DNA of 63,008 nucleotides, the filler included, from Stramenopiles sp. TOSAG23-6 (lineage: Eukaryota), in NCBI GenBank assembly GCA_900128565.1. It is 50 parts of 50 records of this genome, joined end to end, with 100 filler letters (N's around TTAATTAATTAA, not from the genome) between each part and the next. Parts side by side here need not be neighbours in the genome. Positions count along the whole stretch, not along the records: positions 29,152 to 30,314 come from LT639563.1; positions 30,415 to 31,577 come from LT639564.1; 48 more parts are not named here. One strand, given 5' to 3'. The notes below the pieces were generated by a model, which worked only from the letters and a program-made list of their open reading frames with translations, made no database searches and was not told the origin of the DNA. Position 1 is the first letter of the stretch. Every line of letters starts with the position of its first letter. The translations under genes were made by a program, and so were the position numbers. This document shows positions 716 to 59,124 of the stretch, one piece after another.

Positions 716-995
716 CCCTAATTCATCCAATCTAGAAATAATAATGACAAACCTGCACTAACAAAAATCCCAAAAAGAATTTTTCGTGCTTCATTTCCTT
801 GAGAGGCTGCGGATTGCAAGTAGTGTGAAGAAATATTCCAATTTTTTTTTGTTTTTTGGTTAGGTACGAAATTTCGTACGAAAAAAAAAAACACGAAATA
901 TTCACATGAGTAAAAACATACAAAAGTTCTTTTGCCTTTTCAGCATCATTTGTTGCCCCTAACGCATTATCATATACATTATCTACCATGTCATG
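716..995 (-). CDS. C-terminal fragment of a Sel1-like repeat protein with a hydrophobic tail, split by intron 818-921
   Basis: Spliced product DMVDNVYDNALGATNDAEKAKELL|QSAASQGNEARKILFGIFVSAGLSLLFLDWMN* fits the Sel1 repeat consensus. Confidence 0.65.
818..921 (-). mobile_element. Introner-family intron, GT...TT boundaries, TT duplication
   Basis: CTT TT|GTATGTTTTT...CGTACGAAATTTCGTACCTAAC...CACACTAC-TT|G CAA; removal restores the Sel1 repeat. Confidence 0.75.
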
Positions 996-6355: not shown

Positions 6356-7410
6356 AGTAATTCATATATTGTGAAACATATTTTTTTTTTTGTGTTTTTT
6401 TTTTTTTTTTTAAAAAATTCAAAAAAAAAAACATTAGGGAAAAAATTTCCTAAAAAAAAAAACAAAAAAAAAAAAAAAAATGAAAAAAAAACATACTTTT
6501 TTTGGACATAACGCAACACGAATAGCAAGATCAATTTCAGATGCAAATGCAGCTTGAAATCTTTGAGGAAATGAAAATTGTAATGGTTGTTGATGAAACC
6601 CAGACACATCAGCTGCTGTGATATTGCATTTATTGTGAAATAATAATTTTTTTTCTTTGATTTTGTTAAATTTTCATTTCAAAAAAAAAAATATTTTTTT
6701 TGTTCGATTTTGTTACTATTTTGTACAAAATTTTCATTTCGAAAAAAAACTATATATATTATTTAGGTACAAAATTTGGTATGAAACCATTTCAAAAACA
6801 CAAGTATGAAATAAACGTACATTCACGAGGAGTCTCCACCACCATTTTACCCTTTGTACCAATACATTCAATTCGATTATCATGTATTTTGAAACAATAT
6901 TTCAAAAAAAAAAAAAAAATTTNGTNAGGTACAAAATTTCGTACGAAAAAAAAAATAAATTCGAAATTGAAAACAAATAAAACAAACATATCCATAACAA
7001 GAATTTCTACACATTGAAATTGTACATAAAACTCCACTTTCAAATCGTAAATGCATCGATGCAGTATCAAGAATATTAGAATTTTTTAATTCTTTGATTG
7101 AAGATGATCCAGTCGCATATCTATACTACAGGAAAATATTTTTCAATTTTTTTTTTTTTTTTTTTTTTTGTTAGGTACAAAATTTCGTACGAATTTTTTT
7201 TTTTTTTTAATTTTTAAATTGAAAAAAAAAAAAAAAAAAATGAATAATTAAAATGTACACATCAATAGGTTCTTCATCTAACAACCATCGTGTGAAATCG
7301 ATATCATGTGGTGATAGATCCATAAATGGACATCCTCCTTTTAAAAGAAATTCAACAGGTGGACAAGGATTATCTCCAAAGAATATTCGTATAAATTGTA
7401 TATCACCAAA
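6356..7410 (-). CDS. Gfo/Idh/MocA oxidoreductase (myo-inositol 2-dehydrogenase-like), multi-exon fragment
   Basis: Spliced GGCPFMDLSPHDIDFTRWLL...IDV|YATGSS...YGY|DNRIECIGTKG...PRE|CNIT...FSFPQRFQAAFASEI; introns at 6364-6496, 6628-6820, 6882-6987, 7121-7258. Confidence 0.85.
6882..6987 (-). mobile_element. Introner-family intron, GT...AT
   Basis: GGA TAT|GTTTGTTTT...AAAATACAT|GAT AAT CGA restores the conserved YGYDxRxE motif. Confidence 0.85.
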
Positions 7411-30313: not shown

Positions 30314-30466
30314 ANNNNNNNNNNNNNNNNNNNNNNNNNNNNNNNNNNNNNNNNNNNNTTAATTAATTAANNNNNNNNNNNNNNNNNNNNNNNNNNNNNN
30401 NNNNNNNNNNNNNNCAAAATTTCGTACGAAAAATAAATTCGAAATTGAAAAAAAAATAAAACATAC

Positions 30467-31525
30467 ATACAGTACGAAAGGAGAGATAGAATTTACTCAT
30501 GATTTCGCCAGAATATAAACTTTCAATACCATCATCGCCAACATTTGCTACCATTCCAGCTTGTATTAATTGTTTTAAAGATTCTAATGCGATATTATTG
30601 GTAAGAGCAGAAGCTTCACTTGGCTTCTTTTTACACAATCGAATGTAGTAAAATGTACTTTTCAACCAGTCGATGTATTTTGGAAAAATATTTCAAAAAA
30701 AAATCGTTAGGTACAAAATTTCGTATGAAAAAAATTCGAATTTGAAAAAAAAATAAAACGTACATGACGTCACCCACAGATTGTAATGTCCCTAATGCAA
30801 TTTCTGCATTAATACATTCGGCTATTTTTGGATAAAGTTTACTTTCGATTGTATATTGTCCATTCGCAAGATTTTCGTATCGTTGTTTTGTACTTGAACG
30901 AGTCATAATTATAGCAGTACCACTGGTATCAAATTGAGGACGCCCAGCTCTTCCTAGCATTTGTAATACCGCTGATGGATCATACTCAACATGTATTTCG
31001 GAAATATATTTCAAAAAAAAACCCTTAAATTTGTTAGGTACAAAATTTCGTACGAAAAAAACAATTTCAAATTTGAAAAAAAGTAAAACATACATATCCT
31101 CCTTCTGATTGACCTTTCCATTGCTCTGTTCCTTTAATAATAACAGTATGAGCTGGAAGATTCACGCCCATGGCCAAAGTTGTAGTTGTTGCAAGAACTT
31201 TTATCTGTCGTGATCGAAATAAGTCTTCCACAATATTCCGATTATGTATTGTGAAAACAAAAAAAAAAAACTAAAATTTGTTAGGTACGGAATTTCGTAC
31301 CAAAAAAAATTATAATTCATGATGAAAAAACATACATGAGACGAAAGGCCTGCGTGATGAATTGCAAACCCGTGTTTAATCGCATCACTCAGTTTTGATT
31401 CATTTTGAATTCTTCCAGCAGCAATGGAAAGTGTTTTTCTATTTTCTGCAGACTTTGATGCCCCACGTGAAAATTTTTTGAGTACATTGACAGTATCTAC
31501 TGTTGATGATCTAGTACTACAGAAT
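30467..31525 (-). CDS. HFM1: MER3/HFM1 meiotic Ski2-like DNA helicase, four visible exons
   Basis: [21 protein letters not shown]...[22 protein letters not shown]...[27 protein letters not shown]...INAEIALGT...[14 protein letters not shown]...[10 protein letters not shown]. Confidence 0.88.
30673..30763 (-). mobile_element. Introner-family intron close to consensus, GT...AT, 91 nt
   Basis: GTC AT|GTACGTTTTATTTTTTTTTCAAATTCGAATTTTTTTCATACGAAATTTTGTACCTAACGATTTTTTTTTGAAATATTTTTCCAAAATACAT|C GAC TGG. Confidence 0.92.
30991..31093 (-). mobile_element. Introner-family intron, GT...AT, 103 nt
   Basis: GGA TAT|GTATGT...CGTACGAAATTTTGTACCTAAC...GAAATACAT|GTT GAG. Confidence 0.9.
31244..31335 (-). 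mobile_element. Introner-family intron, GT...AT, 92 nt
   Basis: TCT CAT|GTATGT...GTACCTAAC...CACAATACAT|AAT CGG restores HHAGLxxxxRxxVExLF. Confidence 0.9.
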
Positions 31526-31677
31526 ATGTATTTTGGAAAAATATTTCAAAAAAAAATCGTTAGGTACAAAATTTCGTNNNNNNNNNNNNNNNNNNNNNNN
31601 NNNNNNNNNNNNNNNNNNNNNTTAATTAATTAANNNNNNNNNNNNNNNNNNNNNNNNNNNNNNNNNNNNNNNNNNNN

Positions 31678-32255
31678 AACGACTTACGCAAGAAATTCGC
31701 TGTTTACGTCGTTGTCGTAATGTGGGTGTCCCAACACCTGCAATTTTATTTGTTAATTTGGAAAGTAGTCAAATTTTCATGGAGCGGATTAATGGAGAAA
31801 CAGTCAAAAGTTTTTTATATTCAAATCCGTCAAAAACTAAGCGTATTAATATATTACAAAAAATCGGCAAAATATTGGCTACTATGCATAATCATGGTGT
31901 CAGTCACGGTGATCTTACGACATCAAATATAATGCTGCGTGATAAATTTCAAATCTGCAGTAGTTCAAATTCATTGAGTTCAACTTCGCCAGTCCTTTTA
32001 GATAATGAAATAGAAAAGGAAATTGTATTAATTGATTTTGGGCTTGGAAGTAATAAAACAAATGCTGAGGATAGGGCAGTTGACTTATACGTATTAGAAC
32101 GTGCATTTGCTTCGACACATCCAAATTCCAAAGAATTGTTTGCAGAGGTGATGAAGTCTTACGAAACGGAAGCATCAGAAAAACATTGGAAATCGACAAA
32201 ATCACGTTTAGAGGCTGTAAGAGCTCGTGGAAGGAAACGATCCTGTTTTGGTTAG
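31678..32255 (+). CDS. BUD32: KEOPS kinase Bud32/TP53RK (5' truncated)
   Basis: HGDLTTSNIML, LIDFGL, AEDRAVDLYVLERAF, VRARGRKRSCFG*. Confidence 0.95.
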
Positions 32256-32940
32256 GGTTAGGGTTTTAAAGTGAATAATTTTTGCAATACAGTATTCGTT
32301 TTTTCTTATAAGCCTTTTTATTCTATATATTTTGAAAACACTTTAAACATTGTTGTTTTTATTTTCGTCCCATTTTATATCTAATTTATTCCATAATTGA
32401 GGAAAGAGAGACCGTGTAACTTTTTCTTGCCACTGACCTCCCTTGAACATCCCTATACCAATATTCGAAGCATCATTTTCCAATTCTCTCTCACGAGCTT
32501 CAATTTCAGCAATCCTCTGCTGCTCAGTCGCTGTTTTACACAAAGGTTGAATACCACTATGTGATGCCCATAAATAATGGCTTGTATCAACTCTTTTGAA
32601 AGTTTTACTTTTTTTCTTCTTATTATTCAATGTAGTAGTTTTCTCAGTAGTTGTCGATTCATTTACATCATTCCCACTTATTTTTGTTTGTTTTGTTTTT
32701 TTTGGCTTTGATGATTTTAATGGAGCTGGTGGCGCTTTGTAACTACTTTTCCTTCGAAATAGAAAATTTCTCCAGATCCAATACTCAATTGGTTTATATG
32801 AAATATAAACCGCGAGAGGTACAGCAAATAAAAGAAAAAANNNNNNNNNNNNNNNNNNNNNNNNNNNNNNNNNNNNNNNNNNNNTTAATTAATTAANNNN
32901 NNNNNNNNNNNNNNNNNNNNNNNNNNNNNNNNNNNNNNNN

Positions 32941-49431: not shown

Positions 49432-49959
49432 GAAAGAGAAAGATCAAATTTAGCTTGGGATAAAAAACAACAACAACAACAACAACAACAAAATATTCAG
49501 CACTATAAAACTAAAACATCCAAACATTTTAACCCTAACCCTAACCCTACAACATTTAATAATACTAGTCAAATATCAAAAGGTTCATTTGAACAATCAT
49601 TTAAAGTACAAAAATCTTCTTCTTTTGTACATAGTACTACAGAAACTCATTGGAGAAACCCACAAAATATTAAAAATATTAAAAATATGAAAAATATGAA
49701 AAATAGTAAAAATATTAAAAATACACGAAATATTTATCATGGGTCAGGAAGAATTCCGCCACGTGGCACACCACCAATACGAAGTTTTAATACAAAAAAT
49801 ACATACAGACACAGAAATGATTCTCTTTCGTCTACTACACGAAATCTTAATATCCTGGAAAATAGAACTTCACATCGTAACCCTAACCCTAATGAAAGAA
49901 GGACAACAAGAACATTACGTAGGACAAAATCATATACAAATGTAAGGTATAAACCCTAA
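49432..49959 (+). CDS. Low-complexity terminal exon with Gln and Asn-Pro tracts
   Basis: Follows an introner-type 3' end; a tandem duplication spans the stop codon. Confidence 0.45.
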   Translation, partial: ERERSNLAWDKKQQQQQQQQNIQHYKTKTSKHFNPNPNPTTFNNTSQISKGSFEQSFKVQKSSSFVHSTTETHWRNPQNIKNIKNMKNMKNSKNIKNTRNIYHGSGRIPPRGTPPIRSFNTKNTYRHRNDSLSSTTRNLNILENRTSHRNPNPNERRTTRTLRRTKSYTNVRYKP

Positions 49960-50631
49960 CCCTAATGAAAGAAGGACAACAAGAACATTACGTAGGACGA
50001 AATCATATACAAATGTGTAAGGTATAAACCATCATAAGTCTTTTTAAAAATTATGTAGGATTACATTGTATACAAATGTGTAAGGTATAAACCATCATAA
50101 GTCTTTAAAAATAAAATAAAAAATAAATCATTATACAATCATTTTACGTAGTATGAAACATTTTACTATTAAGAATAACATTACTTATATTCAACGTTTC
50201 ATACTTTACAACTAGGTAGGTAATAACTAGTGCTCTACGTATCTTTAGATTCTGTACCATTTTTTTGTACTTTGTTTTTTAGGTATGAAAAAATGGTACG
50301 GAATCCCCTACTTGATTATATTGAGGAATTAATTAAGTCTACTTTTACAATTTACTTGATGTGAAGATGATTATATTTTATTTGTTATATTTTTATTTTT
50401 TTTTTATGTATGGACACAACCACCATACATTCATTTATTTTGTCCCTAGGAAGACATCCTCTTCCTNNNNNNNNNNNNNNNNNNNNNNNNNNNNNNNNNN
50501 NNNNNNNNNNTTAATTAATTAANNNNNNNNNNNNNNNNNNNNNNNNNNNNNNNNNNNNNNNNNNNNTACCTAACAATTTTTTTTTTTTTTTACGGAAAAA
50601 AAAAATTTTGAAATATTTTTCCAAAATATAG

Positions 50632-53145: not shown

Positions 53146-54171
53146 ATGGTCCAGCTAAAACACAACGATATTTATTCCATAAAAATAGTGGTGTTCCAGG
53201 TCGAATGCTAGAAACGCCACATGTATCATGAAAAAATATTCAAAACGAAAATTGTTAGGTACAAAATTTGTTATAAAAATTAATTTATACTAAAAACTCA
53301 AAAAAAAACTAAAAAAAAAAAAAACTCAAAAAAAAACTCAAAAAAAAACTCAAAAAAAAACTCAAAAAAAAATTGAAAAAAAACTCAAAAAAATAAAATT
53401 GAAATTCATAATAAAAAGAAAACACACGATATCGTAAATGATGTCTACCTCCAAATAACTTTAAATCGAGACACTGATTGACAGTTTTGTTATCGCAAAT
53501 AAACATGTATTAAGAAAAAATATTTTTTTTAGTAAAAACAATAGTTAGCTACAAAATTTTCTATGAAAAAAAAAAAAAGGTTTTGATGATGAAAAAAGTA
53601 CATAAATGCAACATTTTCTCTACTTGCTACATCATAATCTAAATGTCTATTCTGTTCATTATAACTTTGACTGTCTGGTTCATTATCACTTTGTAATTTC
53701 TTTTCCACAGGCTTATACTTAAGAGTGTTTTTCAAACTTTCAAAAGCTGTGAAAAATATTTTTTAACATAAAATGTTTAGGTACAGAATTTTCATACTAA
53801 AATAAAAAAATTGAAATTGATGACACAAACGTACGTGTTCGTTATCTGTAAGAATCCCAACTGAATATTTTTTTTTAACAATATCTATCCGACACAATGA
53901 CGCAAATTTCACGTATAGTGGATAATATTTCAAAAAATAAATCGTTAGGTACAAAATTTTCTAGGAAAAAATTTCAAATTAAAATGAAAACGTCTAAAAA
54001 AAATCGTAAAGGTACAAAATTTCGTATGAAAAAAAATAAATTCAAAATTGAAATGAAAACAAACACCTGTACGGGAAACTTTTTCATCCATATTCCCTTT
54101 ACAATATTTTCTTCTGCTTTCCCTTGAGCATTGTATGGTCCTTGTATAGTCTGATTAGTCTGATTATAGAG
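53146..54171 (-). CDS. Protein with two DCD-like domains, multi-exon
   Basis: LYN...IQGPY.A....EENI...W..KFPVQ|VKF and AFM|FICDNKT..QCL..KLFG...SIRPGTPLFLWN. Confidence 0.7.
53911..54064 (-). mobile_element. Introner-family intron with a GT duplication (GT...GT, or GT...AC in the shifted register)
   Basis: CAG GT|GTTTGTTTT...CACTATAC-GT|G AAA TTT restores FPVQVKF. Confidence 0.75.
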
Positions 54172-54336: not shown

Positions 54337-55491
54337 GTTATTATTGTTATTACTATTGTTATTATTACTATTGTTATTATTGTTATTACTAGTATTATTA
54401 TTATTATTATTATTACTATTGTTATTACTATTATTAGTCCAATCGACCAGAAAAGCAATGACATGCTCCCGTATTAAATTGACTACTTTATATACAACAC
54501 ATTCCTTTTCCCATACAGAACACTTTTTCATAATAAAATCTTCAATATTAGAAAGAACCTCTGTTCCAAGCCAATTACCAACAGAACTAACATTTATTTT
54601 TGGTCCTGATTTTTCTGGATAATATTCGCTAAATTGAACACTGAGTACTAAAGGAGGGACATGTACAACACGTATTGAAGACGCTTTCCAAGAAGAAAAT
54701 GTTGCATTTCCTAAATATTGATTATTTATAATTTTTGCAATCTCAATATTTTCCTTTTTCTTTTTCTTTTCAAGCAAGACTTCAGTCTTTGCTTCTTTTG
54801 CTAATTGTATTTGTTCCTCTGCATGTTGTTGGGCAAAATAAATAGTTTCTTGTTTATGATTGACTTTTGCCAAAGCTATTCTTGCATCTATATCTAGTGG
54901 TGACGTATAATCGAAATTAACCACTTGTTCTTCTACCTGTTTGTGCTCAATCAATGTGAAAAAATATTTCAAATAAAAAAAATCATTAGGTACAAAATTT
55001 CGTATGAAAAAAAAATCGAAATTGAAATGAAAACGTTCTTGGTTAGTTTTCAATCGCTCAATTTCACGAATTGTTTCTAATGCTTCCAAGTCAGCTACAA
55101 TTGCCCGATGTTCTGCGATCTCTATACATTTTGTGAAAATATTTTAAATTTGAGATTCTTTAGATATGAAATATAAGAAAAAAAATCATTAGGTACAAAA
55201 TTTCGTACCAAAAAAAAAAAATTGAAATTCATGATAAAAACGTACATGGATAAGTTATCTAAATCATAAATAGACATTCCTTCGCTCTGAAGTAATTGAA
55301 ACGTTTCTTCAAGCGAAAATAACTTTTCTTGAGCTTCTAAAAGAGGAACATTTGTTTGTTTATTTTGTTTCATATTCTTTTGTGCATTATTATTTTGTGT
55401 CATGGCTTGCTTTGACTCCACTGGAACTGCCACACTTTGCTTTGACTCCACTGGAACTGCCACACTTTGCTTTGACTCCACTGGAACTGCC
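54337..55491 (-). CDS. RWD-domain protein fragment (RNF14-like); intron at 55124-55245 (GT...AT)
   Basis: DLEALETI...VVHVPPLVLSVQFSEYYP...P.I.V....WL...ECVVYKVVNLIREH. Confidence 0.7.
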
Positions 55492-55591: not shown

Positions 55592-56746
55592 GTTATTATT
55601 GTTATTACTATTGTTATTATTACTATTGTTATTATTGTTATTACTAGTATTATTATTATTATTATTATTACTATTGTTATTACTATTATTAGTCCAATCG
55701 ACCAGAAAAGCAATGACATGCTCCCGTATTAAATTGACTACTTTATATACAACACATTCCTTTTCCCATACAGAACACTTTTTCATAATAAAATCTTCAA
55801 TATTAGAAAGAACCTCTGTTCCAAGCCAATTACCAACAGAACTAACATTTATTTTTGGTCCTGATTTTTCTGGATAATATTCGCTAAATTGAACACTGAG
55901 TACTAAAGGAGGGACATGTACAACACGTATTGAAGACGCTTTCCAAGAAGAAAATGTTGCATTTCCTAAATATTGATTATTTATAATTTTTGCAATCTCA
56001 ATATTTTCCTTTTTCTTTTTCTTTTCAAGCAAGACTTCAGTCTTTGCTTCTTTTGCTAATTGTATTTGTTCCTCTGCATGTTGTTGGGCAAAATAAATAG
56101 TTTCTTGTTTATGATTGACTTTTGCCAAAGCTATTCTTGCATCTATATCTAGTGGTGACGTATAATCGAAATTAACCACTTGTTCTTCTACCTGTTTGTG
56201 CTCAATCAATGTGAAAAAATATTTCAAATAAAAAAAATCATTAGGTACAAAATTTCGTATGAAAAAAAAATCGAAATTGAAATGAAAACGTTCTTGGTTA
56301 GTTTTCAATCGCTCAATTTCACGAATTGTTTCTAATGCTTCCAAGTCAGCTACAATTGCCCGATGTTCTGCGATCTCTATACATTTTGTGAAAATATTTT
56401 AAATTTGAGATTCTTTAGATATGAAATATAAGAAAAAAAATCATTAGGTACAAAATTTCGTACCAAAAAAAAAAAATTGAAATTCATGATAAAAACGTAC
56501 ATGGATAAGTTATCTAAATCATAAATAGACATTCCTTCGCTCTGAAGTAATTGAAACGTTTCTTCAAGCGAAAATAACTTTTCTTGAGCTTCTAAAAGAG
56601 GAACATTTGTTTGTTTATTTTGTTTCATATTCTTTTGTGCATTATTATTTTGTGTCATGGCTTGCTTTGACTCCACTGGAACTGCCACACTTTGCTTTGA
56701 CTCCACTGGAACTGCCACACTTTGCTTTGACTCCACTGGAACTGCC
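55592..56746. repeat. Exact duplicate of contig 54337-55491
   Basis: Same 1155-nt length and ends; identical ORF translations. Confidence 0.95.
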
Positions 56747-56909: not shown

Positions 56910-57957
56910 CTTTTTGTTGTGTTTCAAAACTATTTTCACAATATATGCTATGAAAATTCATACTTTTTAGGTTCAAGTGGCGGACATCATGATGCCTTGA
57001 AACATGGAGGATATAGTTGCTCCAAGGGAAAATCATCATTTTATGAAGAATTTTATCTTAAAACTTGTGGACCAAATGGGAAAATTATATGTGGTCAATA
57101 TGGTGCTTGTACATGATGAAGCCTAACCCTATTTGTTTTTTTTGGTTTTTTTCGATTTGAACAAAAAAAACAAAAAAAAATCTTTTATTACTTTAATAAA
57201 ATCTTGTATACACAAACAAAAAAAGTTGACATTTTTTTTTCCTATTCTATTCTAAAAGATTTTTTTTTAAAACTTTTGAAATCAATACAATTCTGTGTAA
57301 AGTCATTTATACACATTAAAATTTTTGAATTTTTAAACATTCGAAATCAATAATTTGTTGTAAAGTCATTCAAACACATTAAAATTTTTGAATTTGTTTT
57401 TAAAAATTCACTTTCCTACCCAATAATTCTTTGTAAAGTCATTTTCATGAAATTTTTTTAATTTTCCCATAACCTCCTCAGGTTGTACAATAGTAGTATT
57501 GATATCAGGTGGTAAAAAAACTTTATCATATTTTAGAAAATTATAATGAATCTCATTACAAATACCACGAAAATGATGAGATTGTAAATAATGCATTGCT
57601 TTGTTACATGTTTTTAGAACTTTTTTTAGAACTTTTCTATTGCATATATTCGAATTCGCATTCTTGTTGCATGAGGAGGGATCTTGTGAATTCTCAGCAC
57701 GACAACTGTTTTGTTTTTTTTCACTTGCTTCTTCTACAACATTTTTGCAAAATTTTTTCAGTTCAACATTACCTTTTTCTTGAGCTTCTTCACATCCATT
57801 ACTCATTTCAGTCATTTTTTTGGATATTGGAGAAAAAAAAGTAACATTTTTCAATTTTTTCATATTTAGTAAAACTTCTTTTTTCTTCTCCTATATTTTG
57901 GAAAAATATTTCAAAATTTTCTTAAAAAAAAAATTGTTAGGTATAAAATTTACTATG

Positions 57958-57999
<42 letters not shown>

Positions 58000-58195: not shown

Positions 58196-59124
58196 CATAC
58201 TATTTTCTGGAATATCAAATAAATTAGCTAATTTCTTCACTTCTTCAGAATCTATTCCAGGGAACATCAGCAGTAAGATCGATAAAAGCCGTTCCTTTAC
58301 AATATCAGGAACATTATGTGTTTTACAAAAATATGTCAAATTAAATTTTTATTGTAGGAAAATCGTATGAAAAATAAATTTTCTAGGAAAAAAATAAAAT
58401 TGAAATGAGTGATGAAAATAAGCATTAAAAAAAAAAATCTTTTTTGTTTTTTTGTTTTTTTGTTTTTTTGTTTTTTTGTTTTTTTGTTTAGGTATGAAAT
58501 TTCGTATGAAAACCAAAAAAAAAAAAAAATGAAATTCATGATGAAAACAAACATTTGCATCATCATCTTTTGTATTCATATTATAGTAACTATACGCGCC
58601 TCTACTAAACTCATCTTCACCCCATCGAGTCACATGAGAAAACACCAAAACACTTCCACATATAGATTTCGTGTTTTCATTACTTTTGTGAATTGGATGA
58701 TTTAGATTCATTTTGATCAATTTTTTTTTTTTCGTGGATTTCGTGGGATTAGGGTTAGGGTTTTCAAACATTTCTTTCAAACTACATAATGCTGCAATAA
58801 CAATTTCATTGTCAGTCAAATCTCTAATTTTAAGTGCTTCATTGCCAACAATTGATGCAGATAAGACAGGTATTCCTTTCAATTTATAATGATTTTCAAA
58901 TACACTCACTTTCAAATGTTTAGGGTTAGGGTTAGGGTTAGGGTTAGGGTGTATAGTAGACAGATTCTTCTCGAGTGTGTGAAGTTGGTTAGGGTTAATA
59001 TTGGCTAAAAAAGGAGCATTTTTTGGCCAAAAACAAGATTCAAATTGAAGAATAATTTTTGTGTATTCACACACACCAATACGTTGAATAGCATTTTGTT
59101 TTTTTATTGGAAGAGGTGGATGAA
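58196..59124 (-). CDS. Flavin amine oxidase family fragment (polyamine oxidase/LSD1-like); intron at 58316-58552
   Basis: FHPPLPIKKQNAIQRIG...TKIILQF...FW; VTRWGEDEFSRGAYSY. Confidence 0.85.
58921..58950 (-). repeat. Longest in-exon telomere-like tract, (CCCTAA) x5, encoding PNPNPNPNP
   Basis: TAGGGTTAGGGTTAGGGTTAGGGTTAGGGT inside the amine oxidase ORF. Confidence 0.9.

Follow-up and report, generated by a model that had tools for sequence, protein, structure and literature searches.

Among the sources of new introns, introners, which are made by transposons, have the best support. They are described as short and similar introns sitting in unrelated genes, common in aquatic protists, and many of their families possess terminal inverted repeats (TIRs) and/or a target-site duplication (TSD) (10.1101/2022.06.06.494994; PMC12130899). 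In some of them the element carries the 5' splice site, the 3' site comes from the TSD, and the messenger RNA (mRNA) is left unchanged (10.1101/2022.06.06.494994). One survey accepted GT, GC, GA or AT as donors and AG or AC as acceptors, and discarded families with unfamiliar sites unless they were supported by RNA (PMC12130899). Here we analyse a stretch of 63,008 nucleotides (nt) from Stramenopiles sp. TOSAG23-6 (assembly GCA_900128565.1), below called the window, and a dispersed element of about 90-155 nt within it, five copies of which crowd into a fragment of what appears to be an HFM1/MER3-type helicase gene. The element forms a repeat family and is oriented along the coding strand of its host genes; it is precisely absent from RNA-derived contigs, and its removal restores reading frames across the family. 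We propose that these are probably introners whose 3' boundary is supplied by a duplicated AT.

Several groups with non-canonical introns have also to be considered. The tunicate Fritillaria borealis has introns derived from miniature inverted-repeat transposable elements (MITEs), with TIRs and TSDs and with AG-AC and AG-AT ends, which are handled by an adapted major spliceosome (PMC11282704; PMC13326754), and an exonic repeat (TAC) forms their 3' splice site (PMC11282704). The marine protist Amoebophrya (Syndiniales) possesses repeated non-canonical introns with direct repeats overlapping the junctions and with terminal inverted repeats (PMC7789003). Non-AG ends, junction repeats, pairing of the ends and MITE-like traits are reported for non-canonical introns of euglenids and hemistasiids (PMC11282704; PMC12621601). 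One of these sources describes such non-conventional introns as having neither a conserved donor nor a polypyrimidine tract (PMC11282704), and in marine diplonemid single-cell genomes non-canonical introns were predicted without RNA data (PMC12621601).

Five element copies in a helicase gene fragment

The window consists of 50 contigs of 1152-1173 nt, arranged by length, with 49 linkers, N44-TTAATTAATTAA-N44, between them, and is not one locus. The helicase fragment, at 30415-31577, is a single 1163-nt contig between linkers, and on its minus strand four helicase exons are separated by three complete element copies and flanked by two truncated ones. The features are given below in the direction of reading; a slash marks a junction, and X1 and X4 are contigs assembled from two public sequencing runs.

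31526..31577, minus strand: 3' remainder of an element copy that the contig end truncates, ending ...CCAAAATACAT; its 52 nt are those of the 3' half of copy 3, and the X1 piece begins at 31527
31336..31525, minus strand: exon A of the HFM1/MER3-type helicase (..FCSTRSS...HHAGLSSH), an open frame matched in tblastn by Hydra HFM1 171-233 and covered by X1
31244..31335, minus strand: element copy 1, 92 nt, CAT/GTATGT...GTACCTAAC...TTTTAG..T12..CACAATACAT/, skipped exactly in X1 (419/420)
31094..31243, minus strand: exon B (NRNIVEDLF...KGQSEGGY), helicase C-terminal domain by Pfam Helicase_C and PDB ASCC3, covered by X1 and X4
30991..31093, minus strand: element copy 2, 103 nt, TAT/GTATGT...GTACCTAAC...TTTAAGGG..T9..CCGAAATACAT/, skipped in X4 (sides of 78 and 145 nt, 0 mismatches) and in X1
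30764..30990, minus strand: exon C (...LQSVGDV plus 2 nt), 51-64% identical to single-cassette HFM1/MER3-type proteins, covered by X1 and X4
30673..30763, minus strand: element copy 3, 91 nt, CAT/GTACGT...GTACCTAAC GA T9 GAAATATTTTTCCAAAATACAT/, with no AG after CTAAC, skipped exactly in X1 (796/797)
30467..30672, minus strand: exon D (...SFRTV), winged-helix part with the MER3-type W[LI][KR]STF in the alignment; the X1 cover ends at 30467
30415..30466, minus strand: 5' remainder of an element copy that the contig end truncates, starting TAT/GTATGTTTTATTT; X1 leaves at 30467 and goes on with 4241 nt of other sequence

The element profile and this layout agree with an earlier note on the same DNA, which had counted five copies, three of them complete. 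None of the lengths 92, 103 and 91 nt is divisible by 3, and the copies of this locus align end to end. Deletion of the three complete ones (31244-31335, 30991-31093 and 30673-30763) gives exactly the junction peptides that the note had quoted and a 257-codon frame, which is free of stops as it had stated; the exons are read in the standard code and contain neither TAA nor TAG in frame. Recent activity of the element is indicated by the density of insertions, five within 775 coding nt, and by the truncated 3' copy, which does not differ from copy 3 in any of its 52 nt.

Two assembled contigs carry the exons in joined form. The run X4 is recorded as polyA RNA-seq of a seawater metatranscriptome, and its contig (record 17, 223 nt, depth 2.5) matches 31169..31092 at record positions 1-78 and 30988..30844 directly after it at 79-223, with 0 mismatches, joining 31092 to 30988; the offset of 2 nt from the coordinates proposed earlier is the register ambiguity discussed below. 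The X1 contig (record 1, 5243 nt) comes from a run whose library type is unrecorded and automatically guessed to be DNA. It contains 31527..31336, 31243..31092, 30988..30764 and 30672..30467 as record positions 228-419, 420-571, 572-796 and 797-1002, so that all four exons are joined (419/420, 571/572 and 796/797) with three mismatches in total and all five element copies are absent, and it extends 227 and 4241 nt past this stretch. An uninterrupted contig of 5.2 kb across exons flanked by repeats looks like complementary DNA; from X1 alone an element-free DNA form would be possible. Two further runs, X13 and X7, are recorded as RNA and have many element-derived contigs; they leave the exons uncovered and are uninformative on expression of the helicase.

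The position of the junctions was also judged on an alignment of the spliced translation with 49 other rows, 23 of them single-cassette HFM1/MER3-type proteins and 26 cassettes of ASCC3, Slh1 and Brr2. Junctions 1 and 3 (the latter GDV-I-DWLKS) are gap-free against all of these rows. Junction 2 (GGY/VEYDPS) is preceded by a loop 3 residues longer than in most single-cassette rows, with the gap lying 4-6 residues upstream, and one homologue (P0341) has the same loop length, so the absence of extra or missing residues is borne out at all three sites. The claim that no AG lies between branch point and junction turned out to be wrong for two copies of three: TTTTAG ends 27 nt before the junction in copy 1 and TTTAAG ends 33 nt before it in copy 2. 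It is true for copy 3, where the next AG ends, as had been said, 15 nt into the exon; by our reading its use would delete IDWLK. The other downstream AGs lie at +19 in copy 1 (a frameshift) and at +6 in copy 2 (loss of VE).

Use of the internal AGs of copies 1 and 2 would retain pieces that are in frame and stop-free, and frame alone cannot reject them. They are rejected because the alignment has no room for the 9 or 11 extra residues and because the contigs speak against them. AG-based acceptors generally would add 9 or 11 residues, or take away 2 or 5, where the homologues have no indel, and they are absent from the contigs; X4 for copy 2 and X1 for all three complete copies show the proposed boundaries. 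That the inserts leave the transcript at non-AG junctions is therefore supported by the alignment, which favours the AT junctions, and by the contigs, not by an absence of AG. As for the proposed excision in the form AT/GT...AT/, its sites are confirmed by the X1 and X4 contigs, while its register is not unique: AT/GT...AT/, A/TG...CA/T and /AT...AC/AT give one and the same mRNA. With the same product, the junctions may slide by 0-3 nt to the left in copies 1 and 3 and from 2 left to 2 right in copy 2.

HFM1/MER3 is a meiotic crossover helicase, and the assignment of the fragment to it, also made in the earlier note, is supported by several comparisons. A maximum-likelihood tree of 50 rows places the spliced fragment inside a clade of 23 single-cassette rows (24 with the query) with support 100/99; the N-cassettes and the C-cassettes of dual helicases fall into clades of their own. 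Its motif WLKSTF is the W[LI][KR]STF of the single-cassette clade, in place of the WLxYTYL or YxTWTYF of the others. Hydra HFM1 residues 171-233, 234-285, 283-354 and 359-370 fall by tblastn onto exons A-D, in order. In an exhaustive search, among the best 150 matches, two-stretch proteins were 36-48% identical and one-stretch proteins (about 900-1700 residues, plus fragments) 51-64% identical. Ten one-stretch clusters were looked up, and seven are named HFM1 or MER3 (Hydra, Mactra, Chamberlinius, a JGI record, Saccostrea, Saitoella and Lepisosteus); the remaining three are one Sec63, one unnamed open reading frame (ORF) of Salpingoeca and one nameless. The spliced fragment scores 180-202 bits against the one-stretch clusters and 161-172 against the listed dual-cassette proteins. 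It thus groups with the single-cassette HFM1/MER3 proteins and shares their motif, but it measures 257 residues only, with 37-41% identity to the named members, and the single-cassette architecture as such extends beyond the contig's view.

An identity as ASCC3, Slh1 or Brr2 had been considered, these being the only families found from exon C among longer proteins (<=51% identity), and was overturned by the separation of one-stretch from two-stretch proteins. Exon B matches Pfam Helicase_C at E=1e-4, slightly below the curated cut-off, and its best match in PDB is ASCC3 (E=8e-23). Among the PDB matches of the fragment there is no HFM1 or Mer3 chain, only the same ASCC3/Slh1/Brr2 families, and exons A and D find there designed repeat proteins or a weak Brr2 match. 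Exon D alone as query returned no homologue, and in the rest of the 50-contig window no other contig of the helicase gene was found.

Anatomy, frame restoration and orientation across the family

A profile built from the three locus copies and run with nhmmer over the window (E<1e-3) gives 63 matches in 26 of the 50 unlinked contigs. Because 20 of the 100 contig ends lie inside a match, the shattered state of the assembly can be attributed to this abundant repeat. The 20-nt core TACGAAATTTTGTACCTAAC occurs 47 times with <=2 mismatches in the window and 0 times in 100 shuffles, and the feature is real: it stands well beyond chance and is backed by RNA-derived contigs. Sixteen complete copies, 91-155 nt long and lying in different reading frames, have a mean pairwise identity of 67-80%, the best pair reaching 91%. 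The contigs 54337-55491 and 55592-56746 are 100% identical over 1155 nt, a duplicate assembly entry, and their element copies 55245/56500 and 55038/56293 were counted once each.

The consensus of the 16 copies reads GTAYGTTTT, a T-rich stretch and (T)CAAATTCGAA; a T run and YRTACGAAATTTTGTACCTAAC; a second T run, GAAATATTTTTYCAAAATAC and two letters. Every copy is built on the same plan of a GTAYGT donor, a branch-like CTAAC, a T run and a terminal ...A(A/C)AATAC, with a 2-nt direct repeat, usually AT, around the whole. The ends are inverted, GTAT(G)TTTT against AAAATAC, with TTTCAAA opposite TTTGAAA and a GTAC...GTAC palindrome in the centre. The resulting folds nest but are weak, with z = -0.6, -0.4, -2.5, +0.5, -0.9 and -1.3, one of six below -2.

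AT stands directly 5' of the element at 19 of 21 distinct 5' ends (18 as printed and one misregistered by the profile), the exceptions being AC at 12500 and the copy at 55038, which starts GAACGT; GTAYGT or a one-letter variant is present at 20 of the 21. The 29 3' ends comprise 25 AT, two AG, one GT and one that is misregistered. Two copies have the same non-AT dinucleotide on both sides, GT/GTTTGT...CTATACGT/ at 54064..53911, which joins in frame, and TT/GTATGT...CACTACTT/ at 921..818, a covariation that is the pattern of a 2-nt TSD. The borders thus fit a duplication of 2 nt with a strong preference for AT, and what speaks for duplication rather than site preference are these two covarying copies and the variable last two letters.

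Some copies deserve a separate mention. The copy 55038..54954 on the minus strand (duplicate at 56293) begins GAACGT and not GTACGT, follows AA and not AT, and shares an open frame with the exon on either side; it may have died or become exonised, or it may use a GA-type donor. Copies at 25360-25414 (plus strand) and 57894-57963 (minus strand) end ...CCAAAATATAG/, a canonical AG, and their 5' ends are beyond the contig ends. At 54064..53911 (minus strand) there are apparently two element copies, head to tail or nested, in one 154-nt intron flanked by GT...GT.

The frame rule seen at the helicase locus extends to the family. We removed each element with one copy of the repeat and asked if the longest upstream frame joins the longest downstream frame, for which the chance expectation is 1/3, and 17 of 19 complete copies restored the frame. 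Left out of the 19 were copy 12500 (its contig ends 9 nt later), 58552 and 4452 (3' end unidentifiable), 56500 (duplicate contig) and 55038 (GAACGT start). A simple frame scan had been tried and is uninformative, since the T-rich elements are themselves open in several frames. By a crude criterion of flanking ORFs, 22 of the 63 matches are in sense orientation, one is antisense and 40 are undecidable, and this bias of 22:1 points to a constraint at the level of RNA.

In public sequences, a 20-mer and a 22-mer of the element had 0 matches in JGI metagenome contigs and 0 in IMG/VR, and the exact 20-mer had one match in 596 Gb, in a Bacteroidales metagenome-assembled genome, where about one is expected by chance.

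Cut register and competing explanations

We consider it probable that this is a short, non-autonomous, MITE-like introner family which takes its 3' boundary from an AT target duplication and is likely cut as GT..AT by the U2-type spliceosome. A non-autonomous DNA element with its own donor GTAYGT, branch-like CTAAC and T run would insert with duplication of a 2-nt target, nearly always AT, and the pre-mRNA would then lose the element with one copy of the repeat, by which the frame that existed before insertion would be restored exactly. The cut would most likely fall before the GT of the element and behind the downstream AT. Its agent would be the U2-type spliceosome, which in this organism may carry out the second step with no need for a terminal G, and the TSD would supply the 3' splice boundary, with the letters AT instead of AG. 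The main arguments for ordinary RNA splicing, drawn from the sequence, are the sense bias and the conservation of donor, branch box and T run.

Given spliceosomal removal, the register GT..AT is clearly to be preferred over AT..AC. All 16 complete copies flanked by AT start with GT and end with AT, and the cut comes before a perfect GTAYGT, which matches the usual yeast-type donor at 6/6 positions; read as AT..AC, five of the 15 copies that are AT-flanked and in frame are misfits, which would end in AT (three), GT or AA, not AC. The last four letters are ACAT in most copies, with three copies in ATAT and one each in GTAT and AAAT. Read as GT..AT, the introns keep the A at -2 of the usual AG, and the terminal G alone is replaced, mostly by T.

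A number of observations weigh against this explanation. The bridge recorded as RNA concerns copy 2 only, in one X4 contig of depth 2.5, and copies 1 and 3 with both end copies are bridged by X1 alone, from its run of unrecorded library type; RNA products, moreover, leave the cut register unreadable. In copies 1 and 2 an AG at 10-13 nt past the branch-like A of CTAAC is skipped, which needs the extra assumption that it stands too close to the branch point. The element has only short inverted termini (GTAT...ATAC plus T4/A4), and we know of no transposon superfamily that has a 2-nt AT duplication as its signature. The duplication itself is read from the constancy of AT and from two covarying copies, and one of these, at 921, has two near-equally open downstream frames. 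Rfam found no family in the window, small nuclear RNAs included. The frame rule has its two exceptions as well: in copy 6987..6882 the frame that is joined is open over 29 codons, while the longest has 48, and copy 53834..53748 (minus strand), AC/GTACGT...TTTTTCACA/GCT, which lacks the ...ATACAT end and departs from the AT rule, is in frame only as GT..CA, equal to TA..AG.

The same products would arise from AT-AC introns, /ATGTAYGT...ATAC/, with the upstream repeat intronic and the downstream one exonic, if a major-type spliceosome tolerated A1 and C-1 or a U12-type one had been transformed, and this we regard as unlikely. The AT-AC pair is known in both spliceosomal systems, A at +1 and C at -1 compensating each other, and U12-type splicing tolerates varied 3' terminal letters; U12-type introns are defined by RTATCCTT at the donor and by TCCTTAAC as the branch box, which sits 10-15 nt before the 3' end. 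The pair is an established one for U12-type introns (PMC12621601), and 22 of the 29 3' ends would finish in AC, but the donor would then read ATGTAY with the perfect GTAYGT displaced by 2 nt, and the misfits counted above would have to be accepted. Neither an RTATCC donor nor a TCCTTAAC-like box at 10-15 nt from the 3' end is present, the donor being GTAYGTTTT, and the sole conserved box, GTACCTAAC with its CTAAC, precedes the junction by 34-43 nt in the three locus copies. A different route of spreading with the same excision would be that an AT-ended intron reverse-splices as RNA behind an exonic AT, the preferred site, and is copied to DNA. The near-exclusive sense orientation follows from it directly, and fungal introners lacking TSD or TIR have been read as spread in this way (10.1101/2022.06.06.494994). 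With AT near-invariant, site preference and duplication are indistinguishable, and the same caveat about TSDs is raised in that source. We find it improbable nevertheless: copies ending in GT, TT or AG place the last two letters outside the mobile unit, in the two non-AT copies seen at both ends those letters are the dinucleotide of the upstream exon, and inverted termini with a nested palindrome fit a DNA element.

Removal independent of the spliceosome is less plausible again. In introns of the euglenid and diplonemid type the paired element ends would direct excision and the direct repeat would mark the cut; the non-AG 3' end, the short repeat at both junctions and the MITE-like anatomy agree with it, and in four of six minimum-energy folds (five of six with the centroid of copy 2) the opening 3-9 nt are paired with the stretch that immediately precedes the 3' end. 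We nevertheless hold this very unlikely, as the borders are constant here, with GTAYGT or a one-letter variant at the start of every complete copy used and with CTAAC box and T run conserved, the folds reach z values of +0.5 to -2.5 only, and the changes at pairing positions are transitions, which give no evidence for selection on pairing. Even less credible, to the point of being barely tenable, is programmed elimination of DNA between short direct repeats of which one is kept, as in the internal eliminated sequences of ciliates, the joined contigs being the somatic genome. It would suit short AT-rich elements with inverted ends and one retained repeat copy, and the only run that bridges all five copies, X1, is the one guessed to be DNA, in which no form but the joined one covers the exons, its depth being flat at 7.73. 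Against it, excision from DNA does not require an excess of 22 sense copies over one antisense; the donor, the branch-like motif and the T run are conserved; the RNA-recorded runs X13 and X7 are rich in the element; the exons use the standard code without in-frame TAA or TAG; and the repeat is AT, not TA.

Within the preferred explanation, removal as GT..AT introns by the spliceosome, we may go further and suggest, as a possible though rather doubtful extension, that the second step never reads AG. The cut would be fixed 2 nt past the terminal ...AY and placed by pairing of the inverted end with the donor, any 2-nt duplication (AT, GT, TT or AG) being removed with the element; essentially all introns would be copies of one family, and a single MITE would have rewritten the intron complement together with the 3' rule.

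Neighbouring contigs and comparison with known systems

The G+C content of the window per 2 kb is 22-43%, mostly 25-37%, and the unlinked neighbour contigs encode a coiled-coil protein, a Bud32-type kinase, a LIG6-type DNA ligase and a phage-type RNA polymerase. The ligase fragment at 16505-17668 (plus strand) is uninterrupted over 388 codons, and its best matches are of the SNM1-ligase fusion type (plant LIG6-like), the top one, a EukProt record, being 58% identical. The sequence TTAGGGTTAGGG has 26 sites inside contigs (e.g. 58920-58949, 41164-41280, 49533-49965 and 32252-32263) and none in 100 shuffles. It is often in frame in long ORFs, where it is read as NPNPNP, and at one site it comes immediately 3' of the stop that ends the Bud32-like kinase ORF. 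Possible explanations are interstitial telomere-type repeats located within coding sequence or beside it, and chimeric joins from single-cell amplification.

If the spliceosome removes the element, its copies are a natural experiment on the choice of a 3' splice site without terminal G, and they would hold a middle place, with canonical introners on one side and, on the other, the fully non-canonical introns found in Fritillaria, Amoebophrya and hemistasiid diplonemids. In the described introner families the element and the target duplication rebuild a GT..AG or similar pair, and here the acceptor would be the duplicated AT. It has a practical side too, as gene finders that demand AG would break almost every gene of this genome.

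With the introners of Micromonas, Aureococcus, Symbiodinium, Chrysochromulina and others the family shares its many similar copies, a 3' site apparently supplied by a TSD and an unchanged mRNA; the families described there end in AG (or AC), whereas here AT is found at 25 of 29 ends and the duplication is of 2 nt only. Canonical GY..AG or AT..AC ends are not what the GT register gives, with 25/29 AT and 2/29 AG, and such non-canonical ends lower the membership in the described introner set, not the likeness of mechanism. Fritillaria borealis, a chordate, has donors that are non-canonical (AG) and highly diverse, whereas here GTAYGT is conserved, the departure concerns the 3' end only, and the genome is AT-rich and protist-like, with the ligase fragment closest to the SNM1-ligase fusion type. 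Amoebophrya is described with direct repeats of 3-5 nt, inverted repeats of 8-20 nt, very diverse ends and a G+C content of about 54-58% (PMC7789003), in contrast to one dominant family with a 2-nt repeat, uniform GT..AT and about 25-37% G+C. Euglenids and hemistasiid diplonemids have in common with our case the non-AG ends, TSD-like junction repeats and a suspected MITE origin, and perhaps the pairing of the ends (PMC12621601; PMC11282704). They differ by having no conserved donor or pyrimidine tract, by G+C-rich ends in hemistasiids and by circular products in Euglena, whereas our family conserves the donor, CTAAC and the T run and folds only weakly.

A full-text literature search for GT-AT introns together with introners returned no paper, the supplementary tables of introner surveys lying outside that search, and the combination of a canonical conserved donor with a uniform AT acceptor is in none of the above precedents, as far as their available text goes. 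The family is best read as a new form of introners and MITE-derived non-canonical introns, both already known, and not as a new category.

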